In this document: positions 1,527 through 42,984 of the stretch, in pieces | How the letters are laid out: every line of letters starts with the position of its first letter | Position numbering within the stretch: the first letter of the stretch is position 1 | The notes under the pieces: generated by a model | What the model was told of the DNA's origin: nothing | The model's input: only the letters and a program-made list of their open reading frames with translations | The model's database searches: none | Sequence record: PZ445134.1 | From: a phage | Length of the DNA: 64,000 nt | Direction: 5' to 3' (one strand) | Made by a program: the position numbers and the translations under genes

Positions 1527-3215
1527 TTATGAAACAGTCATTACCGTAAATCGTCCAACTTTGCTCATTTGAAGATGTTGTCCATACCGTTGAGGGTCAT
1601 GGTCTCGATGAGAGATAATGAACACATTAGTATTTTGTAAACTTCCGAGAATGGTATCTATAGCCTTAACAGCCTCAGAATCGACAGCACCATCAAAAAC
1701 CTCATCAAGAATCAGAGTGTTGATTTTAACACCGGAGACCTTTTCAGCAATATCTCGCCATGTAAACAACAATGCGATATCGATACGTGCCTTTTCACCT
1801 TGACTAAATGAAGCATAACTAAAATCTTCACGACCACGTGATTTTATAGATTCATTGAATTCTTCGTCAATAGAAAACACGTAATCAGCTTCCATGATTT
1901 TAAGATAATGGTTAATCTGCTTATTGAACAGAGGCACATATTTTTTAATGATAGCACCTTTAATACCAGAATCTTTTAACATATCTGTGATAATACCACG
2001 ATGGTATTTTTCAAGAACGATATCTGATTTTGTTTTAACGATTTTATCAAGTTCTTTTTGAAGCAAAGCTATCTCATCGGCATGGTCGATAAATTCTGCC
2101 GAGGCTTGTTCTATTGCAGCTTTAACTTTCTTAGCTTTATCAATAGTGGCAATCATTGCTTGTTTCTTGGTACGAATATCAGATGCAAGGTCCTGTTTAG
2201 TCTTAACATTAGCTCTATATTCGTCCACTAGGACACTCAGATTATCTCTGTGACATGTAAGTTGCTCGAATGAGTTATTACATTCGTGAAGCTTATCGGT
2301 AATCTTAGAGACAATAGGATCACCCTGGTGCAACTGTGATGCACAAGTAGGACACGTACCACCATCATGATACATCTTAATAACTTTGTTATACGAGTCA
2401 ATTTTAGATTTAATCAAGAATGCTTCTTGTCCTATCTTGTTAAATGCCTCAGTAGGGTCTTCATCAAGAACGATATTAAGTAGTCGCTCATTAGCTTCTT
2501 CGATTTCTGCTTTTAATGAACGAGCTTCTTTGGCTAGGTCGTCATACATATTCTGTAGACGCGCTACATTATCACCAGATAATTTCTTTTGACGTTCGAT
2601 ATTCTCGTTATAAATCTTAATTTGTTGGATAACACCATCTTTCTTGGCATCGAGAACTTGTCCCTGGGAATTAAGTTCTCGAACTTGAGACTTATTGATT
2701 TTATCCATTTCAGCGAGTGTGCCGACTTCTAAAAGGTCTTCGACAAGTTTTCTGCGAGCAGGGGTGCTAAGAGCCATGAAAGGGGTATACCCTGCCGTCC
2801 CAAGCACAACGATTTGTTTAAAAGACGCGTATGACATTCCGATGCTACGTTCAAATTCTTCTTGGAAGTCACGACTGCTGGCAGATTCATCAAGACGAAC
2901 ACCGTCAACGGAGATTTCGAAAATATTGGGCTTTTGGCCACGTTTAATGAAGTATTTTTTATCATCGAATTCCATCCAAAGCTCAACTAAGAGCCCTTTC
3001 TTGTTCGTGCTATTAATGATTTGCCCTTTCTTAACGTCACGAAATGGTTTACCGAAAAGTCCGAAAGTAACGGCTTCTAACATCGTAGATTTACCACCAC
3101 CATTTTTACCAGTGATTAATGTCTTTTGGACTTTATCTAATTGGATATCAATAGGATTCCCGCCTACCGACATGATGTTTTGATAACGAACACGATTTAA
3201 TTTAAATGATTTCAT
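1527..3215 (-). CDS. 46: recombination endonuclease subunit gp46 (Rad50/SbcC-like)
   Basis: 562 aa; Walker A GKNGGGKST near N-terminus; long coiled-coil middle; CPTC zinc hook; matches T4 gp46 length 560 aa. Confidence 0.9.
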   Translation of the reverse strand: MKSFKLNRVRYQNIMSVGGNPIDIQLDKVQKTLITGKNGGGKSTMLEAVTFGLFGKPFRDVKKGQIINSTNKKGLLVELWMEFDDKKYFIKRGQKPNIFEISVDGVRLDESASSRDFQEEFERSIGMSYASFKQIVVLGTAGYTPFMALSTPARRKLVEDLLEVGTLAEMDKINKSQVRELNSQGQVLDAKKDGVIQQIKIYNENIERQKKLSGDNVARLQNMYDDLAKEARSLKAEIEEANERLLNIVLDEDPTEAFNKIGQEAFLIKSKIDSYNKVIKMYHDGGTCPTCASQLHQGDPIVSKITDKLHECNNSFEQLTCHRDNLSVLVDEYRANVKTKQDLASDIRTKKQAMIATIDKAKKVKAAIEQASAEFIDHADEIALLQKELDKIVKTKSDIVLEKYHRGIITDMLKDSGIKGAIIKKYVPLFNKQINHYLKIMEADYVFSIDEEFNESIKSRGREDFSYASFSQGEKARIDIALLFTWRDIAEKVSGVKINTLILDEVFDGAVDSEAVKAIDTILGSLQNTNVFIISHRDHDPQRYGQHLQMSKVGRFTVMTVS

Positions 3216-3466
3216 ATGTATTCTCTTCGAATGAAGTCCTCTACATATTTTAACATGTCATCTCTATCAGCAAAATATTCATCTAGTTCTGCATACATAA
3301 CAACACCTGGCGCGTACTCACAGGTAACATACATTGTTCCAAAGAAACGAGGAGTTGATTCCTCGTAATTCTCAGTCCATTCAACGACGCCAATATAACC
3401 GTCACCAATACTAAATTCATGACGATGGATTTCATAATCAGTCTTCGTCATTATACGCGTCCTCAA
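3212..3466 (-). CDS. hypothetical protein (46.1 position)
   Basis: 84 aa ORF overlapping gp46 start by 4 nt. Confidence 0.45.
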   Translation of the reverse strand: MRTRIMTKTDYEIHRHEFSIGDGYIGVVEWTENYEESTPRFFGTMYVTCEYAPGVVMYAELDEYFADRDDMLKYVEDFIRREYI

Positions 3467-29673: not shown

Positions 29674-30003
29674 TTATACTCTAGGCTTTTGAGCTTGTTT
29701 GGTATTGGATTCCCATGCGGCTTTGGTAATTTTGTTAGCGGCATAACCAAAGGCACTAGATAGAACACCTTTAGAGTTGAATACATCCAATCCAATAAGT
29801 ACGCCGGCTGTGCTAAATTTAGGAGCAAAGTACGCATTAGTTTTAGAAAGAGCTTTTTTCAATTCAGGGTCTTGAACCAAGCCATCAAAAACGCCTTTAC
29901 TATTTACTTTATATGTTACTTTGGGATTTTTAGCTTCTTCGATAGCAGCTTTCTGTTCTGCAGATAATGTAACTTCAGTGATAAACTCTTGATATGTTTT
30001 CAT
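29674..30003 (-). CDS. internal-protein-like protein with capsid targeting sequence
   Basis: starts MKTYQEFITE (CTS consensus MKTYQEFIAE); track ORF trimmed to this Met. Confidence 0.65.
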   Translation of the reverse strand: MKTYQEFITEVTLSAEQKAAIEEAKNPKVTYKVNSKGVFDGLVQDPELKKALSKTNAYFAPKFSTAGVLIGLDVFNSKGVLSSAFGYAANKITKAAWESNTKQAQKPRV

Positions 30004-30077
30004 TTTGTTCTCTCTAAATTTGGGCCATGGAATGGCCCATGAATTGTCCATTTCTGTATTTACCACTCCAAGTAATT

Positions 30078-30115
30078 ATGAATATACTATCACAATTTTA
30101 GGAGAAAGTAAACTG
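30078..30115 (-). promoter_or_regulatory. early promoter
   Basis: minus strand GTTTAC, about 18 bp, TAGTAT; 5' UTR would include hairpin GGGCCAT-TCC-ATGGCCC at 30022-30038. Confidence 0.4.
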
Positions 30116-30418
30116 TTATTTACCTTTAATTACTTTAGCTGCTTCGATAGCCGCTTGCTGAAGGTCATCCATAGACATACCGAATTTAGAAGCAAAGTTA
30201 TCAATTTTCTTTTCGACAGCATTCAAAGGCTTGGCCTGTTTACCTTCATTAGCGCCAGGAAGAGCGAGAATACGCTCTTTGTCAATATAAAGGCTTACAA
30301 GTTTCTTACGGTCTTTATCGGACAAATCATGAAATGAATGGGCCTTTTTATTTATAGCGGATTCTAATTTACCTGCACTCACTCGCGCTTCTGCAATAAA
30401 TTCTTTATACGTTTTCAT
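30116..30418 (-). CDS. internal-protein-like protein with CTS (IPIII-like N-terminus)
   Basis: starts MKTYKEFIAEARVSAGK; resembles T4 IPIII N-terminal region as recalled. Confidence 0.65.
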   Translation of the reverse strand: MKTYKEFIAEARVSAGKLESAINKKAHSFHDLSDKDRKKLVSLYIDKERILALPGANEGKQAKPLNAVEKKIDNFASKFGMSMDDLQQAAIEAAKVIKGK

Positions 30419-30439
30419 TTTTGTTTCCTTGTTTGTTTT

Positions 30440-30480
30440 GATAGAGTAATTATACCATATTAATACTTAAGCGTAAACTG
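30440..30480 (-). promoter_or_regulatory. early promoter
   Basis: minus strand GTTTAC -35 and TATAAT-like -10. Confidence 0.45.
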
Positions 30481-30481
30481 T

Positions 30482-30742
30482 TTAAGCTTTACCGCCAGAA
30501 ATAATTCCGAAGTTGTTAAAATCGTATCCAATATCGTCAACATCTACTTTAGGGCTTGCTACAACATAAGCAATTTCACTACGTTTTGCATAGGTGTTGA
30601 TTTCTTTACCATCGCCACCTAAGAAAGAATACCCATTACGTTTTAATGAGCCAAAGTCTTCCGCATCACCAATGAAAGCTTTAACTTTAAATTTATGACC
30701 TTTGGCATCTGCTTCAGCGATAAATTCTTGATACATTTTCAT
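30482..30742 (-). CDS. internal-protein-like protein with CTS
   Basis: starts MKMYQEFIAE. Confidence 0.6.
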   Translation of the reverse strand: MKMYQEFIAEADAKGHKFKVKAFIGDAEDFGSLKRNGYSFLGGDGKEINTYAKRSEIAYVVASPKVDVDDIGYDFNNFGIISGGKA

Positions 30743-30748
30743 TTTTCC

Positions 30749-31162
30749 TTAGTAAATTGATTTACCATAGTATTTGTACCAAGTAGGACGTTGGGCAATT
30801 TTTTCGTCTAAGCGTGCTTGACTTATCGCAATGGACGCTTCGGACGGGACATAATTATTACGAAATTCGGCAGGGATGTCGGAAATATCCTGGACAGTCG
30901 TGTCCTTGATTTTGAAACCACGTTTCAAGCATTCAGCGATTAGCTCGATTTGTCGTAAACGTAAAAATTCGAGTTTGTCGTAAAAGAATGTTACGTGACC
31001 TGTGCCTAAGATAAATGTTGGAGAGATTTTAAAATCCTTTACACGTTTACCGTTTTGAACATGTTTACGGACTGCACCAAATACGCGTGGTAATTCACGA
31101 TACTCAGCCATAAGATGTTGGTCGGTCAGTTCAGAAACAAGTGTTAAATTGATACGAGTCAT
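30749..31162 (-). CDS. denV: endonuclease V, pyrimidine dimer DNA glycosylase
   Basis: [34 protein letters not shown]... matches T4 DenV as recalled; start moved to MTRINL. Confidence 0.88.
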
Positions 31163-31184
31163 AATTTCCTCCAAGTAGTTGATG

Positions 31185-31220
31185 AATGTATAGTATCAAA
31201 GTCCTTGGAGGAAGTAAACA
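31185..31220 (-). promoter_or_regulatory. early promoter
   Basis: minus strand GTTTAC -35; TACTAT/TATACA -10 region. Confidence 0.45.
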
Positions 31221-31502
31221 CTATTTTTCTGAAGCGCCTGAAATATATTTTTCAAGACGTTGTTTCATTAGCGAGCCGTTCTTAGCGATTTCTTCCGGTT
31301 TATCGCACATACGCAACAAGGCTTCAAGCTTAACGATATCACTGGTGCGCTCAAATTTGCGAGTATCTATCTTACTAGCAAGTTCAGAAATACGTGCTAA
31401 TAGACTTTCGGCTTCAACCAAAGCTGCACCTAGCTTAGTTGCAAATGTGTCAGTAGCTTCGTTAAGAATAGATTCTGATAAAAATTCACTATATGTTTTC
31501 AT
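31221..31502 (-). CDS. internal-protein-like protein with CTS
   Basis: starts [10 protein letters not shown] after trimming; overlaps e stop by 4 nt. Confidence 0.55.
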
Positions 31503-31987
31503 ATATACGCTTTCCAAGTTCCTGTTTTAAATGTTGAGATTACGCGTTTCGCGCGATTAGGTGTCTGACGATACCATTTAGACTTGGCTAGATTTACTGC
31601 CGCTTCATCCCAACGTTTCTGTTGAAGCATACGAAGAGAATTAGTAAAACCAGCAACGCCTGCTACACCCATTTGGAAGACCATATTGACCAATGCACAT
31701 CGACGAACTGCATCTAAAGAATCATATACCGGTTTAAGTTTAGCATTACCCAAGATTCCGCGAACGGCTTTATCAACGTCTTCATTAAATAGCTTTTCAG
31801 CCTCATCAAGGGTAATTGTACCGTTGCATTTACGTCCGATCATTCTGTCAAGTTCAGCTTTAGCTACGGCTAAAGACGGGTTCTTTGTTACTAAATGACC
31901 TATGCCAATAGTCCAAAAGCCTTCAGTGTCTTTGTATAAAGCCAGTCTAAGACCTTCGTCATTACGAAGCATTTCAAATATATTCAT
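31499..31987 (-). CDS. e: lysozyme (endolysin) e
   Basis: [32 protein letters not shown]... about 75-80 percent identical to T4 lysozyme as recalled; start moved to MNIFEML. Confidence 0.92.
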
Positions 31988-32021
31988 AATACCTCCCACG
32001 TTTATAGGAGGTATTTATTAC
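31988..32021 (-). promoter_or_regulatory. late-promoter-like TAATAAATA plus SD-sequestering hairpin upstream of e
   Basis: perfect 9-bp inverted repeat AATACCTCC / GGAGGTATT with 10-nt loop; 3' arm contains SD GGAGG; TAATAAATA abuts 5' arm. Confidence 0.5.
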
Positions 32022-32480
32022 TTATAGGATGGTAGTGAGCACCTTATATAATGATTTGCCCATTACGTATTCCCATTGAGAAGGTTTAATTAAAGCGAAT
32101 GCATCAAATTCAGGAATCTGTCGTCCGTCTGGGAATGTATGATAGGAATTACAAACACTGTTTCTGAATTGCTCGTGCTCTACAGGGATGGTATATAGGA
32201 ACAGATGAATATTCTTATTGTCTGAGTAACGATGTTCACCTAGGTCTTTCAGGAAGGCAGGGTCATATTGTGTAAACCCAGTTTCTTCTTCGCATTCACG
32301 AATAGCGGCTTTGATAGGAGATTCACCGGGCTCGACACGACCTTTAGGAATATCCCACCGATGAGCTAAAGAACCTTTAGGACGAGAACCAGTTACACGC
32401 CCCATGAATAATTCTTTATCTTCGGTAAGGAAAATAATACCGGCTGATAGTTCTTTCACTTTATTTTTCTTACTCATCAT
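32022..32480 (-). CDS. nudE: Nudix hydrolase NudE
   Basis: Nudix box GRVEPGESPIKAAIRECEEETG; start uncertain. Confidence 0.8.
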   Translation of the reverse strand: MMSKKNKVKELSAGIIFLTEDKELFMGRVTGSRPKGSLAHRWDIPKGRVEPGESPIKAAIRECEEETGFTQYDPAFLKDLGEHRYSDNKNIHLFLYTIPVEHEQFRNSVCNSYHTFPDGRQIPEFDAFALIKPSQWEYVMGKSLYKVLTTIL

Positions 32481-32721
32481 CTCGGTCCCATGATTGTTTA
32501 AAGATATCTCGTATAATAATTTCAACACATGTTTCTGTTGACGGACTTTCACTATCAGATATTTGGACCATATAATCAGAAATAGGTCGGAACATATCCA
32601 AGTCGCTTTCTAAATCTTCTTTGATTTTCTCTTCTGACGTTCCGGTATCATAGGAATACAGATAAGAATCACATGATTCTGATTTAATGTAAATTGCTAT
32701 ACTCATCTCAAATTCCTGCAT
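32470..32721 (-). CDS. hypothetical acidic protein
   Basis: 83 aa ORF. Confidence 0.45.
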   Translation of the reverse strand: MQEFEMSIAIYIKSESCDSYLYSYDTGTSEEKIKEDLESDLDMFRPISDYMVQISDSESPSTETCVEIIIRDIFKQSWDRDDE

Positions 32722-33194
32722 TCGGTAATAAAACGTTCAACTTCATTATTCTTGGCTTTTATCTTGTCTTTATGTTCTTGTAAACTACTTTTAATAAGAT
32801 TAATAATGATGGCGGCGGTACCGCCGCCAATGATGCCACCAACAACACTTATGATACTAGATGCTAATAAGATAGCAATAATATCAACAAAACCAAAAGA
32901 ACTCACCTTAGTACTGAAAAACCATATAGACGGTACAAATATAATCCATCCTGTTATCCATTGGCACTTATTGAAAAACTTTTCAAGCTCAGCTTGAGTT
33001 GTTCGTATTACTTCATCGATAGGTTGATATCCATTAATGTATCTGTTCACGATAATACCTGCTGGCTGGTCGATTTTAAATTCTTGACAAATATGTTTCA
33101 CTAAGTAGGATGGACATCCTGTCCAATCTACTGAATAGTATGAAATACCTTCATTGCCATCGACTATATTAGACCAATATGTTTTGTTAATCAT
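32703..33194 (-). CDS. membrane protein
   Basis: 163 aa with hydrophobic helices and C-terminal coiled segment. Confidence 0.45.
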   Translation of the reverse strand: MINKTYWSNIVDGNEGISYYSVDWTGCPSYLVKHICQEFKIDQPAGIIVNRYINGYQPIDEVIRTTQAELEKFFNKCQWITGWIIFVPSIWFFSTKVSSFGFVDIIAILLASSIISVVGGIIGGGTAAIIINLIKSSLQEHKDKIKAKNNEVERFITECRNLR

Positions 33195-33880
33195 TACCAG
33201 CCTTCCATAGGGAATTCCAGATAAACTTGAGCATTGACACGAATTTCATTGGTAATCTTTTTAACTCGGTCTGTATTACGAGATACACGTCCGAACCAAC
33301 GCCATCCATTACTAATTGCACGAGAACCAGTGTGCCATGTTTGCCAATCAAACTGAAGAAGAGTACGATCTGGAGCTTCCCATTTCTCTAGTTCACCTTT
33401 TTCGATTTTTTCGAGGACTTCTTTGTGCCACTGGCGATAGATAAGTTCGCCATCAGGAATCTGACTGAACTCTGCAGTTCCTGTTGCAAAATGAGTAGGA
33501 CACACATCAGCGTTAACAAGACCAAGAATATGTTCAGAATGGTAACGAGGGTTGTCATAATCAGGTTGTCCTGCAGTAATAAAGTGTTGACCGGCCGGAA
33601 TATCAGGGCGTGGAACATCATCATGGTGATACCCAGGAATAGCAGGATACCAACCGGGCATCAGCATGTGAACTCGTGAATCAAATACTACATCCGAGTC
33701 TTTCCAATCGTCAGGAAGATTTTGGATAAAGCTACGAGTAATTGGGCCACCATTATCAAAAGCAAAATTCAAATCGCAGTTAAAGAACATAGGCTCGTTT
33801 TTAATCTGGTCATTTTTAATCGCATGAGCAAAACCACCTACTGCACGAGCTTGACTATTAAACACTTTAGAACTATTCAT
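33194..33880 (-). CDS. hypothetical protein
   Basis: 228 aa; His/Asp-rich stretch; no motif recognised. Confidence 0.5.
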   Translation of the reverse strand: MNSSKVFNSQARAVGGFAHAIKNDQIKNEPMFFNCDLNFAFDNGGPITRSFIQNLPDDWKDSDVVFDSRVHMLMPGWYPAIPGYHHDDVPRPDIPAGQHFITAGQPDYDNPRYHSEHILGLVNADVCPTHFATGTAEFSQIPDGELIYRQWHKEVLEKIEKGELEKWEAPDRTLLQFDWQTWHTGSRAISNGWRWFGRVSRNTDRVKKITNEIRVNAQVYLEFPMEGW

Positions 33881-33881
33881 A

Positions 33882-34187
33882 TTATTTTCCTCGACATTCT
33901 TTAATGAAATTTTCTAGATTGGTAGATTCAATAGCTTTTTTACGAGCTTCTGCGTGTTCTTCTTCAGACAATTTACGTTTATAATTGACCCAGACATTAT
34001 GGTCGAAACTAGTCGTGGCATATAATAACAATGCTCCGACGAATAATAAAAACGGTGATAAGAATACAAAACCAGGAACACCATCCATATCGTAAGCCTT
34101 TTGTAATACTGCAACAGAAAGGGCTGCGTAAAAAAGCGATGCAAATATTGTTAAAAGACCAATTCGGTTGGTTTCGCCTAATTTCAT
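33882..34187 (-). CDS. membrane protein
   Basis: 101 aa; two hydrophobic helices; SD GAGGAG. Confidence 0.45.
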   Translation of the reverse strand: MKLGETNRIGLLTIFASLFYAALSVAVLQKAYDMDGVPGFVFLSPFLLFVGALLLYATTSFDHNVWVNYKRKLSEEEHAEARKKAIESTNLENFIKECRGK

Positions 34188-34199
34188 AATATTCTCCTC

Positions 34200-34247
34200 A
34201 TGTTTTAATAGGACTACTATAACATAGTCCTATCATGTTGTAAACAG
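34200..34247 (-). promoter_or_regulatory. early promoter with dyad symmetry (PeSL-like)
   Basis: minus strand GTTTAC, 17-18 bp, TATAGT; arms ATAGGACTA/TAGTCCTAT. Confidence 0.55.
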
Positions 34248-34257
34248 TTTTGTGAAG

Positions 34258-35214
34258 TTATTTGAAAGGTTTTACCATATGGAAATTTTGTTTGAAACGT
34301 TTGACGTAATCATCATGTCCTAAGCTTTGGTACATACTTACTACTTTGCTGTAGTTTTCCCAGGCATACTCACGGAACCAACCAGAAGTGATGCTTGTGC
34401 AGACTTTTTCTAATGCCATCATGAAACTGGCTTCAGGGTTAATTTTAAAGTCATTAGGAATCTGAGAACGTTCTAATGCTAGTACACATGATTCTTCATA
34501 TACACCGGCCAATTTGACCATTTCTGGTAATGATTCGAACTTCTCACGTGAGGTCATGACTTCAGAACCGTCTTTCATATAAAATGTATACGCTGGACGG
34601 TCTGTTAGTGCAATGGCTTCATGAATAGTATCATGGTCATACGTATAGATGTCATCTTTAAAGAACGCACTTTTAGAAGTGTCAAGAACTGGGTGAGCAT
34701 AGTTCAAGGTTTCTTTCTGGCGTTTCAGCATAATTTCAGTAAGTTCATCGTTCAGTGTAACACCTTTACCACGAAGATACTGAATATGGTTCATAGTCTT
34801 TAAAAAGAATGGATTATTTTTCTTGAAACGATGAGACATCTTAATTGCAAGACATATCTCAGGAGTTGCCCAGTAAAACCCGTTCAAACGGTCTTTAGAC
34901 AAATTTTTCTTGGCGTATTTTAAAAGGTCATAAGAAGACGTGAAATCTTCAGGAGTGAGTTCACCGACTAATTCACGGACATTAGTGATTGCCGGAACAA
35001 TATATGCTTCAAAATGAGTTTCGCGTCCATTATGGAAGCATTTGAAAACTTGGACACCAGGGTTATCTTGATGAACATATACGCCCATCATTTGATTTTT
35101 GAATGTATTCCAAGAACCTTGGTCTGCAATAAAGTCCCAGTCACTATTTTTGATAGCGTTAGAATCAATAAGACCATGATAGTGAAGTGCACGAGAACCA
35201 ATAACTAACATCAT
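34258..35214 (-). CDS. hypothetical protein (possible nucleotidyltransferase-like N-terminus)
   Basis: 318 aa; N-terminal IGSRALHYHG...SDWDF loosely resembles a GS...D.D signature; weak. Confidence 0.45.
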   Translation of the reverse strand: MMLVIGSRALHYHGLIDSNAIKNSDWDFIADQGSWNTFKNQMMGVYVHQDNPGVQVFKCFHNGRETHFEAYIVPAITNVRELVGELTPEDFTSSYDLLKYAKKNLSKDRLNGFYWATPEICLAIKMSHRFKKNNPFFLKTMNHIQYLRGKGVTLNDELTEIMLKRQKETLNYAHPVLDTSKSAFFKDDIYTYDHDTIHEAIALTDRPAYTFYMKDGSEVMTSREKFESLPEMVKLAGVYEESCVLALERSQIPNDFKINPEASFMMALEKVCTSITSGWFREYAWENYSKVVSMYQSLGHDDYVKRFKQNFHMVKPFK

Positions 35215-35242
35215 AATATTTTCCTCGGATTAATTCATTAAC

Positions 35243-35494
35243 TTAAATTTCACGACATGCGATATCATATTCATCCCAGAGGTCATCGTGTGAAGCCTCT
35301 ACCAATGGAACGATTGTACCATTTATGTCTTCATTATAAGGGCAAATTGTACAGTGTGCATCTTCGAATCGAATGCCTTTATGTTCAGATTTTTTATAAC
35401 GCATATCGAATATCTTTGCAAACTTTTCACGAGTAATGGTTTTAGCAACCACTTCGGTTCCAATACTTTCGTAATAAATCATTGTGGGCTCCAT
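35243..35494 (-). CDS. hypothetical protein
   Basis: 83 aa ORF. Confidence 0.45.
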   Translation of the reverse strand: MEPTMIYYESIGTEVVAKTITREKFAKIFDMRYKKSEHKGIRFEDAHCTICPYNEDINGTIVPLVEASHDDLWDEYDIACREI

Positions 35495-35504
35495 TTAATT
35501 TGAT

Positions 35505-35542
35505 AGGACTACTATAACATAGCCCTATCTTGTTGTAAACTG
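35505..35542 (-). promoter_or_regulatory. early promoter with dyad symmetry (PeSL-like)
   Basis: minus strand GTTTAC; arms TAGGACTA/TAGCCCTA around -10. Confidence 0.5.
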
Positions 35543-35544
35543 TT

Positions 35545-35742
35545 TTAGCAAGAATAACTAGATGATACCCAGCCTTGAACAGTAATACTATTATTTGATA
35601 CCGAGATTGCATTCTGGAGATTCAGACCTGCGTTATCTTCAATCCATAATGTAACTTCTTCGCGTTCTTCTGTTGCAATTTGGAACAGGTTTTCTAGGGC
35701 AGCTACTGCCGTACGTACAGCACAATCTAATTCACGAGACAT
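35545..35742 (-). CDS. small protein, C-terminal GW(V/I)(S/A)SSxxC family member
   Basis: 65 aa ending ...VQGWVSSSYSC. Confidence 0.45.
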   Translation of the reverse strand: MSRELDCAVRTAVAALENLFQIATEEREEVTLWIEDNAGLNLQNAISVSNNSITVQGWVSSSYSC

Positions 35743-35751
35743 ATGATTTCC

Positions 35752-36024
35752 TTAGCAAGTGTGAGAAGATGCAATCCAACCACCGGTTTCGAGGCTCAGG
35801 TTGTAGTCGTATTGGTAAACGTCAGCCCATTCAGCATAGCCGTTTTTTGTACAACGTTCAAGATCGGCTTTAAGCTGTCCTGGTGAATGATAAGTTCCAC
35901 CCATACCATAAGCTGGATACAAGTCGAATGATGTGTTTTGTTTATCAGCAATTTCTTTGGCAGCCTCAATAGCTGCATAGATTTTTGCTACGGCTTCAGC
36001 CAGTTCGGTTTGTTCTTTAGACAT
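35752..36024 (-). CDS. small protein, C-terminal GW(V/I)(S/A)SSxxC family member
   Basis: 90 aa ending ...TGGWIASSHTC; shares GGTY and IAD motifs with 36034..36339. Confidence 0.5.
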   Translation of the reverse strand: MSKEQTELAEAVAKIYAAIEAAKEIADKQNTSFDLYPAYGMGGTYHSPGQLKADLERCTKNGYAEWADVYQYDYNLSLETGGWIASSHTC

Positions 36025-36033
36025 AATGATTCC

Positions 36034-36339
36034 TTAGCACAACGCAGAAGACGAAACCCAAGCACCTTCAGTAATAACGTAACCATTACCTTCACGCTTA
36101 ACATCGCCACCATTATTTTCAATTTCATCTTTCATCCACTGGGATACGATTTCACCCTTAGGATAATAAGTACGACCGCTACCATAATCACCTACAGAAA
36201 ATGATACGGCGTATTGGTCTGCGATCTTTGTTGCTTCTTCTTCGATACGTTCAGCTTGATTCAGAAGTTTATAAATTGCATCTGAAGCGGATTTGGCATC
36301 ATTAAACTCTGGTACTTTAATTTCAATAATCTTACTCAT
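36034..36339 (-). CDS. small protein, C-terminal GW(V/I)(S/A)SSxxC family member
   Basis: 101 aa ending ...EGAWVSSSALC. Confidence 0.5.
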   Translation of the reverse strand: MSKIIEIKVPEFNDAKSASDAIYKLLNQAERIEEEATKIADQYAVSFSVGDYGSGRTYYPKGEIVSQWMKDEIENNGGDVKREGNGYVITEGAWVSSSALC

Positions 36340-36695
36340 TTTCTACATTCCTTAATAAAGTTTTCTATTGTTTCATTTTCACGTCTAGCTAGGAGTTCAT
36401 TATAACTAATCATTTGAGAAGCGTAAACCTTTTTATTTTTCTTGTTATGGCTTATAAAATCGTAGTAAAAATAGACTACAGTACAAAATGACGCGATGGA
36501 TGCAAAGGCTTGGGTATACCGTAAGTCCTGCCATTGGTCTGTGAATCCACCAGTGTTCCCTATAAATCCTAATACAACGCCGTCAATAAGAAATCCAACT
36601 AATCCAAAGGCAAATCCCATGCTAATACTCATAATAAAAATTAGAATGTTCTCGCCAAGAGAAGGCCATACGGTTAAGAGTTGAGGCTTTTGCAT
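36336..36695 (-). CDS. membrane protein
   Basis: 119 aa with 2-3 hydrophobic helices. Confidence 0.45.
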   Translation of the reverse strand: MQKPQLLTVWPSLGENILIFIMSISMGFAFGLVGFLIDGVVLGFIGNTGGFTDQWQDLRYTQAFASIASFCTVVYFYYDFISHNKKNKKVYASQMISYNELLARRENETIENFIKECRK

Positions 36696-37099
36696 CTTAT
36701 TTCCTTAACGAATTCCATAGCTTCTTCATATTCATACTTTTTAACAGCTTCATCATACTGAGCTTGGGCTTTTGCGCACTGATCTTTCCATTCTCTTAAT
36801 CGGGCTCTGTGATGACGGCCTTGGTACCAATATCCTACCCAATTAATAGGCATTAATAAAAACGGTACAATAAGTGGTGCGACGAACATTAATGAAAATG
36901 CTGCATCAGACGATATAACTTCACTAGAATCTAAAACAGCTCCTATAATCATAAAGATTAAAAATGCTAAAGCTAAAATAGGGCCAAATAGTACTTCATT
37001 TGGGATTAATTTACGCTTGTATTCATACGCCCAGGGCTTAATTGGCATGTATAGGGTTGGCTTTGACATATTCTCTACATTCCATAATAAATTGCTCAA
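36674..37099 (-). CDS. membrane protein
   Basis: 141 aa with hydrophobic helices. Confidence 0.45.
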   Translation of the reverse strand: MSNLLWNVENMSKPTLYMPIKPWAYEYKRKLIPNEVLFGPILALAFLIFMIIGAVLDSSEVISSDAAFSLMFVAPLIVPFLLMPINWVGYWYQGRHHRARLREWKDQCAKAQAQYDEAVKKYEYEEAMEFVKEIRCKSLNS

Positions 37100-37655
37100 G
37101 GATTAAATTGTTAGTGAAATTAGGACTAACAACCATGGTTTCATAAAGCGCATCAATAGCACTTAAAGCATCAACTCTTTTAAGCAAAGGCTTACCTTCA
37201 TACATAGTTTCAGAATCGACGATTAACGTAAAGTAATATTTTTTATTATTGACCAGAACTTCTGTATCAATATAAAACATGTTAGATCTTAAAAGCTTGT
37301 CTCTAAAACCATAATAATCTTCAGAGCGTTCGCTGATATATTCCCATTCAGTGTTTAAACAACAAACAGACCATGTAGGAGCAACGAAATCAGTGAATCT
37401 AATATCATGGTCTGCAACTAGTTTAGCAATAGCTCCGATATCATGAATCATAATACCTGGGGCCAATAAAGATTTTCGGTTATTTGCATATTCAGTTGTC
37501 TCATAAGAAGACGACCAGTACCATTTACGTCCAGTTGCAACATATCGTAATGAATCAACTAAAGACGTAGGTGGATTTACCTTATTTCGGAACTCTTCGA
37601 ACATTGAGTCAATATCATTATTTTGGTTTCGCATGTTAACTCCTTTATTATCCAA
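37038..37655 (-). CDS. hypothetical protein
   Basis: 205 aa ORF; start uncertain. Confidence 0.45.
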   Translation of the reverse strand: MDNKGVNMRNQNNDIDSMFEEFRNKVNPPTSLVDSLRYVATGRKWYWSSSYETTEYANNRKSLLAPGIMIHDIGAIAKLVADHDIRFTDFVAPTWSVCCLNTEWEYISERSEDYYGFRDKLLRSNMFYIDTEVLVNNKKYYFTLIVDSETMYEGKPLLKRVDALSAIDALYETMVVSPNFTNNLILEQFIMECREYVKANPIHAN

Positions 37656-37683
37656 AAGGAGGACCGGAGTCCTCCGTATTATT

Positions 37684-38292
37684 TTATTTCAAAGAGTTAA
37701 TATATTCTTGTACATCAGCAGAAGTGGTTTCGACACCAGCTGGAGTGCCATTGAACGTTTCAACACGAGTCAGAGTGTCTTCGATATCAACCTTAGTCAG
37801 TGCAGCGATTTCAATTACATCATCAGCCGTAGAGATACCAAGGGCATTGGCTGCTCGAGTTTCACGAATGTATTCGAGTTTGATTGCCAGATTCTGACGA
37901 GCATCGTCAAGTTCAACCACCTTACGAGCAATTTCAATTCGCATAGCGGCATACCCGTCGGCTTTTGTATTAAGTTGTTCGGCAGTTCGACGATACAGAA
38001 GACCAAGCTTAGCATGCATGGTAACATCTTGTCCTTCAGCCAGGAGCTTACGAATTTCACGTTCCTTAGAAGCGGCTTGCTTGTTCTTTTCATTAACAAG
38101 TTCGCGAATACGTTTTTCTTCATTAATAGATTTAACCGAAGCCGTTTTTAGTTCTTTGATTTGGGTAATCAACTTATCTGCAGCTGCGTTATACTGTTCT
38201 TCGACAGTCAGATTTTTAGCCATAGCAGTACCCAGTTTAGTGCGGATGAATTCAACAAGTTTCTTCAGTGTGTTCATATTATTACCTTTCAA
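37684..38292 (-). CDS. coiled-coil protein, possibly PspA/IM30-like
   Basis: 202 aa almost entirely predicted helical/charged; PspA similarity is impressionistic. Confidence 0.4.
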
Positions 38293-38298
38293 TTGGTG

Positions 38299-38347
38299 GT
38301 TTATTATCCAACGAGAGCATTATACTCTGCTCTCAAGAGTTTGTAAA
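38299..38347 (-). promoter_or_regulatory. early promoter with dyad symmetry; copy 2 of the 49-bp duplicated cassette
   Basis: tttattatccaacgagagcattatactctgctctcaagagtttgtaaat differs by 1 nt from 6989..7037. Confidence 0.55.
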
Positions 38348-38575
38348 TTATTTTTTAATCAAATTGACATAAAACTCGGCATCTTCCGGGTGCATGCCTT
38401 CACAGTATTCTTCAACCATGAACTTCTTAACGGCTTCATAAGGACCACTCAGATTAAGCTCAGTTGTCCAGAACTTGGAATCTTGGACTGAATCGATACG
38501 AACTTCAGGGTGACGGTTGCGAATAACTTCTTCGGTGTATTCATAATCAACGACATCAATACTAACTGTAGCCAT
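38348..38575 (-). CDS. hypothetical protein
   Basis: 75 aa ORF. Confidence 0.45.
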   Translation of the reverse strand: MATVSIDVVDYEYTEEVIRNRHPEVRIDSVQDSKFWTTELNLSGPYEAVKKFMVEEYCEGMHPEDAEFYVNLIKK

Positions 38576-38584
38576 TTTGTTTTC

Positions 38585-38632
38585 CTCTTGATTTGATGTG
38601 ATTACTATAACATAAACTTACTTAGATGTAAA
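38585..38632 (-). promoter_or_regulatory. early promoter
   Basis: minus strand ATTTAC -35 variant and TTATAGT -10. Confidence 0.4.
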
Positions 38633-38786
38633 TTATTTCAACGTCACCTTTAGCTGCTTTATAACCTTCAGCCCAAGATACAACAGAGTTTTTATCTGAG
38701 GATTCAAATTCAGGCATTGGACTTTCACCAATATTCACACAGTATGTTTCTTCATTTTCATCGAACCAAATAATTAAAGTAGTCAT
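38622..38786 (-). CDS. small hypothetical protein (54 aa)
   Basis: hand-translated MTTLIIWFDENEETYCVNIGESPMPEF...; SD GAGGAG. Confidence 0.3.
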   Translation of the reverse strand: MTTLIIWFDENEETYCVNIGESPMPEFESSDKNSVVSWAEGYKAAKGDVEIIYI

Positions 38787-38809
38787 TTTGTTTACTCCTC
38801 TGTAGTTGA

Positions 38810-38848
38810 TAAGTCTATAGTATCACCGTCCTTGGTGCTTGTACATCA
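38810..38848 (-). promoter_or_regulatory. early promoter
   Basis: minus strand ATGTAC -35 variant, TACTATAG -10, CCAAGGACGG element in spacer. Confidence 0.4.
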
Positions 38849-38855
38849 TTATTTT

Positions 38856-39188
38856 TTAATTTTTCCAACTTAACAACTTGTAGTGTCCTTCATTAATACG
38901 TGGTTTATCCCAAGAAATACTAATATATGATTCACTGTCAATAGAAGTCGCCGGGTTTTTCTCTACCGTAAGACCTTCACTTTCCAGCCATTCAATAGTA
39001 TTTGCGCATAAATCAGAAGAACACCTCATCGGAAACCGGCAAGATTTTTCACCTTTAGCTGCAGTGTTATACATCTTTTCTAAAATACGCTTTTGCACGT
39101 TTTTAAAAATAGTTTCAGCAGATTCTTCAGATTTTTTATTCAGTTCAGTATAAAGACTCATAACATTCTTCTCATTAATAGGGCTCAT
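38856..39188 (-). CDS. hypothetical protein
   Basis: 110 aa ORF. Confidence 0.45.
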   Translation of the reverse strand: MSPINEKNVMSLYTELNKKSEESAETIFKNVQKRILEKMYNTAAKGEKSCRFPMRCSSDLCANTIEWLESEGLTVEKNPATSIDSESYISISWDKPRINEGHYKLLSWKN

Positions 39189-39218
39189 AATATCTCAATC
39201 ATAAGCACATGTAAACAA

Positions 39219-39494
39219 TTATTTCATATTATTGAAATAATCTTCAGCGATTTCGTCATTATCATGGTAAACTTTGGTAGACGATTTGGCGTAACCTTCA
39301 GCTGAGAACATATTAATCACAACCTTTATAGTATACCACTGTCCGTCTTCGTTACCCATTACTGCGTAAGTTTCAAACATCGGATGGTCAGGTCCAATAA
39401 CTTTAATATCATTCACCGTACGTCCGAAATCTTCTGGAACGCATTTCATAAAGAAGTTGAACATTTCGCCGTAATTATCCATTTCATTCTCCAA
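39219..39494 (-). CDS. hypothetical protein
   Basis: 91 aa ORF. Confidence 0.45.
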   Translation of the reverse strand: MENEMDNYGEMFNFFMKCVPEDFGRTVNDIKVIGPDHPMFETYAVMGNEDGQWYTIKVVINMFSAEGYAKSSTKVYHDNDEIAEDYFNNMK

Positions 39495-39517
39495 GTTTTT
39501 TCTGTATCGGTAGTTGA

Positions 39518-39556
39518 TAGTTGTATAGTACCACGGAAGAACAGGGATGTAAACAG
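39518..39556 (-). promoter_or_regulatory. early promoter
   Basis: minus strand GTTTAC, 17 bp, TACTAT. Confidence 0.5.
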
Positions 39557-39677
39557 TTTTGTGAAAAAATTTTTAAAAGTTTTTTTGGGAATTCTAGGGC
39601 AAGGAGAGGCAATTAAAGGATAGGATATTGTATTATAAAGGGAAGAAACTAAATGATGCCTAGAGAGGTCCAGAAAG

Positions 39678-39705
39678 GCCTAGATACTAAAAAGCCCCAA
39701 CCTTT
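39678..39705 (-). terminator. rho-independent terminator (copy 3 of 3 identical), downstream of tRNA region
   Basis: same 27-nt element aaaaagccccaacctttcggaaggggc. Confidence 0.65.
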
Positions 39706-39766
39706 CGGAAGGGGCTAAGCCTTGCGGCAACCTTGTCGGGGTTCCACCTACTAGGTAAGTGTTTGT

Positions 39767-39858
39767 ACGAAACGCCGGGATTCGAACCCGGTTATTAAGC
39801 AGTTGACGCTACTCAATATTTTTAAAAGGCCGTATCTCGGCCATATCCGAACGTTCCG
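39767..39858 (-). ncRNA. tRNA-like element (T-arm plus acceptor-like stem), possible small stable RNA
   Basis: minus strand CCGGG-TTCGAAT-CCCGG T-arm followed by CGTTTCG, which pairs with CGGAACG 85 nt upstream; no clean cloverleaf found by hand; no CCA. Confidence 0.3.
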
Positions 39859-40097
39859 TCAAAAACGCTACTCGGCTTACGGCAAAGATATTTCCTCGAA
39901 TCGATAATTCTGTGCGCCGTTTCTGCTGTGATGTAAGGGGATATTAACAAATCGTAAAGATTTATTAAGACCAGTCCTTACGCAGGGAACATCAGTCCGA
40001 CGACTTACCGGTAGCGACCCGGTTTCTTGTTTGGTGCGCCGGTGAATGCTGGTAATCAGTCTTCATACGACGGCTTGACTATATAATAGTCTTCATT

Positions 40098-40172
40098 TGG
40101 TATCCCGCCCTGGGATCGAACCAGGACCGCAAACTTAGAAGGATCGTATGCTATCCATTACACCAGCGGGAT
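40098..40172 (-). tRNA. tRNA-Arg (anticodon TCT)
   Basis: hand-folded cloverleaf: acceptor ATCCCGC/GCGGGAT, D-loop AATGGATA, anticodon loop CTTCTAA, T-arm CCTGG-TTCGATC-CCAGG, encoded CCA. Confidence 0.7.
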
Positions 40173-40177
40173 GTAGT

Positions 40178-40254
40178 TGGTGACCCCGACCAGATTTGAA
40201 CTGGTAACCTTTCCCTTATGAGGGGACTGCTGCTAACCATTGAGCTACAGGGCC
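40178..40254 (-). tRNA. tRNA with anticodon CAT (Met or Ile2-type), atypical D-arm
   Basis: acceptor GGCCCTG/CGGGGTC with two G-U pairs, anticodon loop CTCATAA, T-arm ACCAG-TTCAAAT-CTGGT, encoded CCA; D-stem pairs poorly. Confidence 0.5.
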
Positions 40255-40316
40255 TAAATAACTTTCTATTATGAAAGGCACTTTAGAGCACCTTTGGTAA
40301 TAGAGGGTATGAATTA

Positions 40317-40343
40317 ATAATAACACATAATTCTTAAAGCAAA
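40317..40343 (-). promoter_or_regulatory. candidate MotA-dependent middle promoter for the tRNA cluster
   Basis: minus strand TTTGCTTTA MotA box, 12 nt, TATTAT; about 55 nt upstream of tRNA at 40254. Confidence 0.4.
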
Positions 40344-40350
40344 TTACGTT

Positions 40351-40641
40351 TTACCGTACCATATTAATGTAATTATATTCAATGCAACGTAATTTCAAAG
40401 GATTCTTGAAAATATCATATTCAAGAGGGCCTTTTTCTGTTTCAATAAAGAAATCAAAGTTAACTGTGTTAAATTTATCATCTTCATAGAGTAATTTAAC
40501 CTGTGAAGACGAACGGTCGATGTAAACCTTTTCAACTTCAAAATTAGTCAAAATACCATAGTCATCGACTAGTGCTTTAGCTGCACGTTGATCACTTTCG
40601 TATCCATTCTCGACAGATTTTACTTTAGCATAAAGAATCAT
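40351..40641 (-). CDS. hypothetical protein
   Basis: 96 aa ORF. Confidence 0.45.
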   Translation of the reverse strand: MILYAKVKSVENGYESDQRAAKALVDDYGILTNFEVEKVYIDRSSSQVKLLYEDDKFNTVNFDFFIETEKGPLEYDIFKNPLKLRCIEYNYINMVR

Positions 40642-40997
40642 GAGTGTTCCACCACTTCAAAAGTATGTGCACTGACAATCTGGTACCAGTCAAAATTTTC
40701 TTCAGCATTTTTGTAGATTTCACGAAGAGCTTCAACAGTTTTTCCTGTAGCAACAAGATCGTCAATACCGCCAAGAGGATAACAGTCACCAGCAAACAGA
40801 AGGAAATTAATAGTTTCTGTAGGTTCTGGATGCAGAACACCGTTATCGTCTACCACTTCAAAGAAAGTGTAAGAAGGAGTACAAGTTTTAATCCAAGCCC
40901 ACGCTTGAGCCGCTGAATCAAATGGTCTGCGTATCAAACGACAATCAGGGTCTTTAGAAGGATTTGCTTCAAAATCCGCATATACATGATATTTCAT
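40638..40997 (-). CDS. hypothetical protein
   Basis: 119 aa ORF. Confidence 0.45.
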   Translation of the reverse strand: MKYHVYADFEANPSKDPDCRLIRRPFDSAAQAWAWIKTCTPSYTFFEVVDDNGVLHPEPTETINFLLFAGDCYPLGGIDDLVATGKTVEALREIYKNAEENFDWYQIVSAHTFEVVEHS

Positions 40998-41183
40998 TTA
41001 CTCACCTTTTGCAATTTTATCCATAACGATAGCGATTAAGCCTATTAGAAATGCTACTACCAACGAGATAGAATTTTCTGTTGTTGTCAGTAGTCCACAA
41101 ATGAATCCTACAAACATCGAAAAACTAAAAGCCATTGAAGCAATTACTACAGCAACATTACGAATCAGTTCAGCGCGTTTCAT
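40998..41183 (-). CDS. small membrane protein
   Basis: 61 aa, one hydrophobic helix. Confidence 0.4.
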   Translation of the reverse strand: MKRAELIRNVAVVIASMAFSFSMFVGFICGLLTTTENSISLVVAFLIGLIAIVMDKIAKGE

Positions 41184-41204
41184 TTTATTCTCCTCAGTAG
41201 TTGA

Positions 41205-41243
41205 TAGGGTAATAGTATCACTACCCTATATAAAAGTAAACGG
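41205..41243 (-). promoter_or_regulatory. early promoter with dyad symmetry (PeSL-like)
   Basis: minus strand GTTTAC; arms TAGGGTA/TACCCTA. Confidence 0.5.
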
Positions 41244-41252
41244 TTTTATAAA

Positions 41253-41561
41253 CTATTTTATTCCGCGTGATGCAATCGTATTCTGCCGTTTAACGCCAGT
41301 TTGTTTAAAGTTATGATTGTCGAGTTGATCGGTGCGAGCAACTCCGAATGATGATTTAATCTTAGCTTTAGATCCTTTAGTTATAGAAATAAACATCTCG
41401 GGAGCCCCTTTCTTAAAGTCCGAAGCAATTACTTCAACACCGTTCTTAGCAAGTGACTTCATAATTGCTTCCGCATACTCATCATCAAGACCCGCTTGAG
41501 TATGAATAACGAATGTCTTTGGTGCAGCCGCTTCATTGATAAATTCTTTAAATGTTTTCAT
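41253..41561 (-). CDS. internal-protein-like protein with CTS
   Basis: starts MKTFKEFINE. Confidence 0.6.
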   Translation of the reverse strand: MKTFKEFINEAAAPKTFVIHTQAGLDDEYAEAIMKSLAKNGVEVIASDFKKGAPEMFISITKGSKAKIKSSFGVARTDQLDNHNFKQTGVKRQNTIASRGIK

Positions 41562-41587
41562 TTTATTTTCCTAATTAATTTTGATGA

Positions 41588-41623
41588 GATAATAGTACCA
41601 CTACCCTATCTAAAAGTAAACTC
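41588..41623 (-). promoter_or_regulatory. early promoter
   Basis: minus strand GTTTAC and TACTAT. Confidence 0.45.
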
Positions 41624-41894
41624 ATTTTAAATAAATTGCGTATTTTTTATAGCCACCAGGCTCGTGTCGAAGACCCCTATCATTAGCAAAACGCTCAATG
41701 TTGTTAATTTGATTCTGGTCAAGTTCAGAGATGTCAAACACGAAATAGTTACGTTTGTTACCAACTGTTACATAGTCAGTTAAATCAATACCATATAGGT
41801 AATTGATGTCAGCAATCATAGTCTTGACAGCTTTGCTAATTTTTACTTTTTCGTTAAAAGTAGCTTCATTGATAAATTCTTTAAATGTTTTCAT
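41622..41894 (-). CDS. internal-protein-like protein with CTS
   Basis: starts MKTFKEFINE. Confidence 0.6.
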   Translation of the reverse strand: MKTFKEFINEATFNEKVKISKAVKTMIADINYLYGIDLTDYVTVGNKRNYFVFDISELDQNQINNIERFANDRGLRHEPGGYKKYAIYLK

Positions 41895-41919
41895 TTTATT
41901 TTCTTAATTAATTTTGATA

Positions 41920-41957
41920 GGACCTACTATAACATAGTCCTATCAACATGTAAACTA
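41920..41957 (-). promoter_or_regulatory. early promoter with dyad symmetry (PeSL-like)
   Basis: minus strand GTTTAC; arms TAGGACTA/TAGTCCTA. Confidence 0.5.
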
Positions 41958-42221
41958 TTAAATACCTGCTTCGCGCTTAACATAAGCAACATAAGCTTCG
42001 ATAGCTTTCTTGCTGGTAATTTTTACCTGACCGCGTCCGTTGCCTTCTTTAGAGTTTTTCTTAACAACTACATTACCATCTTTAACACCCCATACATGGA
42101 CATAAGTACCGATGTTTCGGTCGTAGAACATTGCATGGTCGTTGTTGTAAGAGAATGATTCGTAGTTCTCTGTCAGAGTAGAAGATTGAGATTCAGCGAT
42201 AAATTCTTTATACGTTTTCAT
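41958..42221 (-). CDS. internal-protein-like protein with CTS (IPI position)
   Basis: starts MKTYKEFIAE; located beside 57B where T4 has ipI. Confidence 0.6.
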   Translation of the reverse strand: MKTYKEFIAESQSSTLTENYESFSYNNDHAMFYDRNIGTYVHVWGVKDGNVVVKKNSKEGNGRGQVKITSKKAIEAYVAYVKREAGI

Positions 42222-42249
42222 TTTATTTCCTTGAGGTCGTTTATTTGAT

Positions 42250-42287
42250 AGGATGATAGTAACACACCATCATCCTTATGTAAACTG
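42250..42287 (-). promoter_or_regulatory. early promoter with dyad symmetry (PeSL-like)
   Basis: minus strand GTTTAC, 17 bp, TACTAT; arms GGATGAT/ATCATCC. Confidence 0.5.
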
Positions 42288-42298
42288 TTTTGTGAAAA

Positions 42299-42984
<686 letters not shown>

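Follow-up and report, generated by a model that had tools for sequence, protein, structure and literature searches.

Seven small genes in two clusters (positions 29,674 to 42,221) were analyzed in a window of 64,000 nucleotides (nt), the whole stretch of DNA examined from phage sequence record PZ445134.1. The seven genes very probably belong to the polymorphic internal-protein (IP) system of the T-even phages, as cassettes whose products are packaged in the head, injected, and directed against nucleases, and whose diversity is maintained by cassette exchange. By its sequence the window is that of a Mosigvirus (RB69-like phage), and both clusters are 96–98% identical at the DNA level to Mosigvirus phages. 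Packaging, cleavage, injection, and anti-defense activity are properties that we infer by analogy with phage T4. The genes are labeled A1–A4 in cluster A, on the side of e and denV, and B1–B3 in cluster B, on the side of 57B. Their coordinates, leaders, and closest identities are as follows, with lengths in amino acids (aa).

29674..30003, minus strand: A1, 109 aa, leader MKTYQEFITE followed by V; ortholog of RB69 ORF123c (97%); phrog_3966, 'unknown function'
30116..30418, minus strand: A2 = IPII (Ip2), 100 aa, leader MKTYKEFIAE followed by A; 92/100 residues identical to T4 IPII
30482..30742, minus strand: A3, 86 aa, leader MKMYQEFIAE followed by A; ortholog of RB69 ORF125c (95%); phrog_2667, remote relative of Ip7
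31221..31502, minus strand: A4, 93 aa; ortholog of RB69 ORF127c (100% over the body); phrog_3499
41253..41561, minus strand: B1 = Ip7, 102 aa, leader MKTFKEFINE followed by A; 91% to the annotated ip7 of phage T2
41622..41894, minus strand: B2 = Ip9, 90 aa, leader MKTFKEFINE followed by A; 86% to 'Ip9' of RB15 (UniProt Q38376); phrog_7673
41958..42221, minus strand: B3, 87 aa, leader MKTYKEFIAE followed by S; phrog_13302, 'unknown function'; no named relative

Identification of the Leader-Bearing Genes

Each of the seven open reading frames (ORFs; 86–109 aa, all minus strand) opens with the pattern MK(T/M)(Y/F)xEF(I/L)xE, which corresponds to the capsid targeting sequence (CTS) of the T4 internal proteins. 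A first-pass annotation of the window had placed them at exactly the coordinates listed above, the strand being left unstated. In a six-frame scan of the window, matches to MK[TM][YF]xEF[ILV]xE were confined to the seven ORF starts. The number of matches expected by chance from the six-frame residue frequencies is 1.5e-5 per window, and 200 shuffles of the window returned none. A purine-rich ribosome-binding site precedes six of the seven starts; the exception is A4, whose start codon shares nucleotides with the stop codon of e. A search with a much looser pattern revealed no eighth, degenerate CTS gene in the window.

The bodies (residue 11 to the end) were compared with one another by BLASTP, and no pair was detected below E = 0.05. 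With the leader removed, A3 and B1 both match the remote-homology family phrog_2667, with E values of 1e-12 and 1e-32, respectively. At the level of sequence profiles these two are probably distant relatives, and the set therefore comprises about six families rather than seven. The earlier description of the bodies as mutually unrelated stands by BLASTP and probably does not hold for the pair A3/B1.

The two clusters are the two canonical T-even IP loci, e-denV-vs.8 and 57B(Acb1)-trna.4. In the annotated T4 record, ipII and ipIII are located between denV and e, and ipI is located between trna.4 and 57B. The order of cluster A in the window is e-A4-denV-A3-A2-A1-vs.8. The neighbors denV, e, and 57B, which the first-pass annotation had named, were recovered as Pfam matches.

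Predicted Targeting and Cleavage Residues

Mutagenesis of the CTS of T4 IPIII located the targeting function mainly at residues 4 (aromatic) and 7 (Phe) and the processing function at residues 8 and 10, and the prohead protease gp21 is known to cut after the Glu of an I/L-x-E motif (PMC9026906). All seven leaders in the window retain Y/F at position 4, F at position 7, I/L at position 8, and E at position 10. Residues 8–10 of A1, A2, A3, A4, B1, B2, and B3 are ITE, IAE, IAE, LSE, INE, INE, and IAE, respectively. In A4 the LSE at residues 8–10 is followed by S, and a second site, L-N-E followed by A, occurs at residue 15. The CTS codons vary at synonymous sites between cassettes (ACA/ACG, GAA/GAG, and ATC/ATT), so that the amino acid sequence, rather than just a repeated stretch of DNA, is under selection. 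The possibility that the leader motif is an artifact of a repeat in the DNA was ruled out by the same variation.

The predicted mature proteins contain 76–99 aa and have masses of 8.2–10.6 kDa. Five of the seven are basic, with isoelectric points (pI) of 8.9–9.8, like IPI* and IPII*. The predicted mature form of A1 contains ~99 aa and has a pI of 9.7, and that of B1 has a pI of 9.8. Values of 6.8 and 6.3 were obtained for the mature forms of A3 and A4, respectively.

Identities of the Individual Bodies

The bodies were compared with the proteins of T4 and RB69, with PHROGs, and with 50,697 phage records using tblastn. Copies that are 98.7–100% identical to each of the seven bodies are present in deposited phage genomes, and five of the seven genes fall in PHROGs that are annotated as internal head or virion protein. 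The first-pass annotation had implied an IPIII-like member, and none was found: no body is significantly similar to T4 IPIII (193 aa), nor does any match T4 IPI below E = 0.1. A match to IPII or IPIII is limited to one of the seven genes, A2, yet all of them match deposited phage proteins at the identities given above. Searches of the PDB by sequence returned nothing significant for any of the seven (best E = 0.029, with IPI* not matched). In Pfam none of the seven exceeded the curated cutoffs, and PADLOC reported nothing meaningful.

A2, the IPII ortholog, falls in phrog_7857 ('internal virion protein', 7e-54) and was detected in 198 phage records, with a best identity of 100%. B1 matches phrog_2667 at 3e-40 and was found in 284 records, including those of Klebsiella and Enterobacter phages (best identity 98.9%). 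Matches to A3 and A4 were obtained in 216 and 497 records, with best identities of 98.7% and 100%, respectively. B2 was detected in 183 records (best identity 100%). In the AlphaFold2 model of B2, the body has the order alpha-beta-beta-alpha-beta-beta with a pLDDT of 78 and only generic structural neighbors, and the leader is modeled as a short helix, with a linker of low confidence between it and the body.

A1 was found in 91 phage records with a best identity of 99%, and the near-identical matches listed are all annotated as 'hypothetical'. B3 is the narrowest family of the seven, with 36 phage records (best identity 100%) and a single 90% cluster in a collection of 5.8 billion proteins. The annotations of the B3 matches listed are 'hypothetical' or uninformative, and none is an internal protein. 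The single-sequence AlphaFold2 model of B3 has a pLDDT of 50 and is unusable.

A relative of A1 with 33% identity is encoded in Dhakavirus vB_EcoM_ESCO10; this protein also bears a CTS, and its gene adjoins denV. In ESCO10 (positions 1447–2114 of the compared stretch), two CTS-bearing ORFs directly follow denV, namely, the A1-family relative and an Ip7-like protein. Both are annotated as 'RNA polymerase ADP-ribosylase/ADP-ribosyltransferase', labels that look like mis-annotation.

Promoter and Stem-Loop Modules

Against an expectation of 1.3, the window contains 19 copies of the early-promoter pattern GTTTAC-N16-19-TANNAT, and every copy is on the minus strand. A promoter of the GTTTAC type is located 25–55 nt upstream of A1, A2, B1, and B3. 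Together with the promoter of B2, five of the seven genes (A1, A2, B1, B2, and B3) have an early promoter of their own, as the first-pass annotation had proposed for most of them. The promoters associated with the two clusters are the following.

30084..30113, minus strand: early promoter (T4-type) upstream of A1, nearly identical to the T4 ipIII promoter
30449..30478, minus strand: early promoter (T4-type) upstream of A2, GTTTACG...TGGTATAAT
31190..31219, minus strand: early promoter upstream of denV
41581..41621, minus strand: early promoter with embedded stem-loop (PeSL-like) upstream of B1
41911..41954, minus strand: early promoter TTTACA-17-TATAGT with embedded 13-nt inverted repeat upstream of B2
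42245..42285, minus strand: early promoter with embedded 11-nt inverted repeat upstream of B3

A3 has no promoter of its own and starts 6 nt downstream of denV, and the denV promoter probably serves A3 as well. The start of A4 overlaps the stop of e in the sequence ATGA, and A4 is translationally coupled to e. A late promoter shared by the genes of the clusters was considered and ruled out; the sole nearby copy of the canonical late promoter, TATAAATA, lies inside A2.

In cluster B the repeated module consists of the promoter, the embedded inverted repeat, the ribosome-binding site, and the 30 nucleotides encoding the CTS. The B1 copy of the module agrees with the B2 copy at 55 of 56 nt. Inverted repeats were found in the promoters of B2 and B3 and in the promoter downstream of B1, and the stem in the B1 promoter is weaker and was recognized by inspection only. 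The promoters of cluster A have weaker stems. The same promoter/stem-loop module is carried by ipI and ipIII of T4. The PeSL (promoter-early stem-loop) elements are mobile regulatory cassettes; in the T4 group they have the consensus TTTACW-N17-TAYWAT (PMC4122927), and they mediate modular shuffling (PMC4122927, PMC2839356).

A further copy of the module (ATAGGGTA...TACCCTAT) is located downstream of B1, at 41201–41241 on the minus strand. This copy precedes a trna.4-like ORF of 61 aa (40998–41183) that lacks a CTS, and the module is therefore not restricted to IP genes. The 5′ untranslated region of A1 contains an extra segment of ~50 nt between the promoter and the ribosome-binding site that is not found in the other six. 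Within this segment (window positions 30021–30039) is a perfect GC-rich hairpin of 8 bp, TGGGCCAT-TCC-ATGGCCCA.

Cassette Mosaicism among Relatives

The content of the two loci differs between related phages. In cluster B, RPN187 has B2 and B3, S143_2 and VIPECOMC06 have B1 and B2, and the window has B1, B2, and B3; coverage of this locus by any record is at most 86%. In cluster A, phi25-307 has six cassettes, including an IPIII, and RB69 has a different cassette (ORF124c) at the position occupied by IPII in the window. From this mosaic distribution of sequences we infer recombination between cassettes.

The 'ip7 protein' of Escherichia phage OLB35 (P0017, 77 aa) combines an Ip7-like N-terminal half with 35 Ip9-like residues at its C-terminus. 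This chimera is as expected from a deletion that fused adjacent cassettes such as B1 and B2.

Proposed Function and Alternatives

The following pathway is proposed for the seven gene products. The CTS, the first 10 residues of a protein of ~9–12 kDa, would bind the scaffolding core during prohead assembly, as in T4. Cleavage by gp21 after Glu10 would then provide a mature protein of 8–10.6 kDa, which would remain in the head with the DNA and be ejected into the cell alongside it. A protein ejected with the DNA would therefore act before any phage gene is expressed. Most probably, each protein would block one variant of a first-response host nuclease, above all the modification-dependent Type IV restriction enzymes of the GmrSD family that cut DNA containing sugar-modified cytosine. 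For A2 (Ip2), the predicted target, taken from the T4 protein, is the GmrSD/BrxU-type enzyme of ECOR21. Cassette exchange would keep the set diverse, and the homology for recombination would be supplied by a common module of ~100 nt that includes the early promoter, the stem-loop, the ribosome-binding site, and the CTS codons.

This pathway follows the T4 system. Previously, Ip1, Ip2, and Ip3 of T4 were each found to block one distinct Type IV enzyme of the GmrSD family with no cross-protection, the targets of Ip1 and Ip2 being GmrSD-CT596 and GmrSD-ECOR21, respectively (PMC12373910). Both Ip loci were proposed by Silas in 2025 to be dedicated to an arms race with GmrSD (PMC12373910). Growth on ECOR17 requires T4 IPIII, and the protein remains effective when the cell provides a form that lacks the CTS. 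The DNA of Mosigvirus contains arabinosylated 5-hydroxycytosine and is cut by enzymes of the GmrSD family (PMC13390438, PMC6024577), and the logic of the T4 internal proteins should therefore apply here. The first-pass description of a diversified set of injected cargo proteins is supported by the leader residues, the two IP loci, and the identities with IPII, Ip7, and Ip9, with packaging presumed. Its nomination of the non-IPIII-like members as uncharacterized anti-defense candidates holds for six genes and not for the IPII-like member, which has a known target (ECOR21 GmrSD).

Several observations weigh against this assignment. No virion proteomics of a Mosigvirus covering the seven proteins was found in the literature. 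None of the bodies has a match in Pfam, PADLOC, or the PDB, and the anti-defense role of six of them is predicted from family precedent and genomic position. None of the seven genes is immediately preceded by a canonical late promoter, and the late expression that prohead assembly would require is therefore assumed from T4. The mature proteins of A3 and A4 are near neutral and not basic. Weak negative evidence is provided by the Mosigvirus NicPhage, in which a B3-type gene is present yet the phage is sensitive to BrxU (PMC13390438); B3 is therefore probably not a BrxU blocker.

A possible but less likely alternative is that the proteins are injected and that some of the uncharacterized members target defenses other than Type IV enzymes or take over host functions in the manner of Alt. 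Apart from A2, which is Ip2, the bodies have no similarity to Ip1–Ip3, and no homology constrains their targets. Cluster B abuts the anti-CBASS gene Acb1, and the phages that carry Ip9-like domains differ widely in their DNA chemistry, as described below. However, the three characterized internal proteins all act on GmrSD variants, and both loci were tied to the GmrSD family by Silas et al. (PMC12373910). A nuclease that attacks the entering DNA is also the target for which an injected stoichiometric inhibitor is best fitted.

It is improbable that some of the seven are unpackaged, that is, early cytoplasmic accessory proteins in which the leader is kept only as part of the recombination module. 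The early-type promoters, with no late promoter directly upstream, are in keeping with this arrangement, as are the repetition of the module in the DNA (55 of 56 nt identical between B1 and B2), the occurrence of the Ip9 body alone and leaderless in other phages, and the activity of IPIII from the cytoplasm without its CTS. However, the leaders vary synonymously while the functionally mapped residues stay fixed, and the I/L-x-E cleavage motif is kept in all seven. Moreover, T4 ipI and ipIII share the same early-promoter layout, yet their products are packaged at ~300 copies (PMC9026906).

Equally little weight is given to a role mainly within the head, as basic counterions or as parts that assist DNA packing or the scaffold rather than in anti-defense: a basic pI (8.9–9.8) is predicted for five of the mature proteins, T4 internal-protein lysines are in contact with the phosphates of the DNA, and head assembly is aberrant in IPIII mutants (PMC3012670, PMC9026906), but such a role does not predict unrelated bodies, rapid turnover of cassettes between near-identical genomes, or neutral A3 and A4, and all three T4 internal proteins have specific nuclease targets (PMC12373910).

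If the seven proteins are injected nuclease inhibitors, they would act before phage gene expression and would therefore decide how the phage fares against first-response nucleases and influence its host range. Targets have so far been assigned for Ip1, Ip2, and Ip3 only, and the window adds six further candidate cargo proteins. The restriction enzymes and inhibitors dedicated to arabinosylated 5-hydroxycytosine are still barely mapped. The six proteins other than Ip2 are practical candidates for screening against GmrSD/BrxU variants and for engineering the host range of therapeutic phages.

The Ip9 Body beyond the T4-like Phages

Relatives of the Ip9 body were also identified outside of the T4-like phages. 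An exhaustive profile-free search of 1.84 billion representatives returned 11 relatives. Leaderless stand-alone proteins of 66–86 aa, including P0022, P0023, P0027, P0028, and P0030, are found in Seuratvirus and in metagenomic phages; Seuratvirus SHIN8 encodes a leaderless homologue of 74 aa (positions 1492–1716 of the compared stretch). The relatives P0021 and P0026 have CTS-like leaders, and such leaders read MKFNEFLTEA and MKSFKEYLTES. In P0029, a Kuttervirus-type protein of 861 aa, an Ip9-like domain occupies residues 665–734. An Ip9-like domain is also present at the C-terminus of a large protein of Kuttervirus KFSST3 (positions 1–1734 of the compared stretch), for which no informative family match was found.

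A separate ORF of 79 aa in Salmonella Kuttervirus KFSST3 (Ackermannviridae; positions 2386–2625 of the compared stretch) begins with MKGFKDFLTEA, which is closely similar to a CTS. On this sequence evidence, a tag of the CTS type may be used outside of the Straboviridae.

The three phage groups that carry Ip9 have three different DNA hypermodifications, namely, arabinosyl or glucosyl cytosines, 7-deazaguanines, and aminoethoxymethyl-uracil. The leaderless relatives of Ip9 support an earlier suggestion from the Black laboratory (PMC9026906) that small phage proteins already in existence were tagged with the CTS. A more speculative proposal, which we consider rather doubtful, is that A1 (phrog_3966) and B3 (phrog_13302) are unrecognized IP families and that the Ip9 body is a portable inhibitor domain. 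If this were true, Ip9 would block a class of modification-dependent nucleases whichever modification is sensed. The T4-like phages would then bolt a CTS onto cytoplasmic anti-defense genes, so that the products are delivered ahead of transcription.

Relation to Known Systems

A diversified CTS-tagged cargo at two hyperplastic loci is textbook T-even biology, and the finding as a whole is already known, the variable gene set since 1994, because the concept is published, Ip7 and Ip9 are named, the RB69 orthologs are on record, and the seven proteins are present at 98.7–100% in public genomes. The polymorphic IP cassettes of the T-even phages, the Ip4–Ip13 series, were reportedly described by Repoila et al. 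in 1994 (EMBO J 13:4181). That diverse injected proteins which counter host defenses share only the CTS was stated by Rao and Black in 2010 (PMC3012670) and by Silas in 2025 (PMC12373910), citing the work of 1994, and 'at least 10' Ips were noted in related phages (PMC12373910). Within this series B1 is Ip7 and B2 is Ip9, and the concept is identical: at a hyperplastic locus, one type of CTS is common to bodies that are unrelated to each other. The window differs from the series in A1 and B3, which are not annotated as IP among the matches listed. Their two families are thus modestly new at the level of annotation.

The window shares with T4 the 10-residue CTS with I/L-x-E, the two loci, the promoter/stem-loop module, the size class, and IPII in the form of A2. 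It differs in having seven cassettes compared with three in T4, in lacking IPI and IPIII, and in the position of denV inside the cluster. The DNA of T4 contains glucosyl-hydroxymethylcytosine, whereas that of phages of the window type contains arabinosylated 5-hydroxycytosine, and the relevant nucleases may therefore differ. With the PeSL elements (Arbiol 2010, Comeau 2014) the window shares a TTTACW-N17-TAYWAT promoter that is combined with a short inverted repeat and recurs where cassettes meet in a hyperplastic region, whereas the repeated module of the window also takes in the ribosome-binding site and the 30 nt that encode the CTS.

In RB69 (records AY303349 and NC_004928), ORF123c, ORF125c, and ORF127c are the orthologs of A1, A3, and A4, with body identities of 97, 95, and 100%, respectively. 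At the 57B locus, RB69 reportedly has an IPI homologue (PMC6024577), whereas the window has Ip7, Ip9, and B3. Compared with window positions 31440–31520, ORF127c of RB69 (positions 3048–3329 of the compared stretch) has two indels, −1 and +1, separated by 21 nt, in the part that encodes the CTS. These indels scramble the leader into MKTYMNFYQNLSLNE, and the leader is intact in the window and in phi25-307. Either RB69 has truly lost the leader or its reference record contains a sequencing error.

Neighboring Genes

The genes neighboring the two clusters are denV, e (phage lysozyme), nudE, 57B, 57A, and gene 1. Two of these bear directly on the IP loci.

30749..31162, minus strand: denV (pyrimidine-dimer glycosylase), within cluster A; Pfam Pyr_excise
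42299..42754, minus strand: 57B = anti-CBASS protein Acb1, conserved flank of cluster B; Pfam Acb1, 7.4e-59

Since 57B is Acb1, the ipI locus directly adjoins another counter-defense gene. The genes for gp21 and gp22 are presumably located just past the 3′ end of the window, by RB69/T4 synteny and the T4 gene order. The only tRNA genes between the two IP clusters are those for tRNA-Arg(tct) and tRNA-Met(cat), at 40098–40254 on the minus strand.

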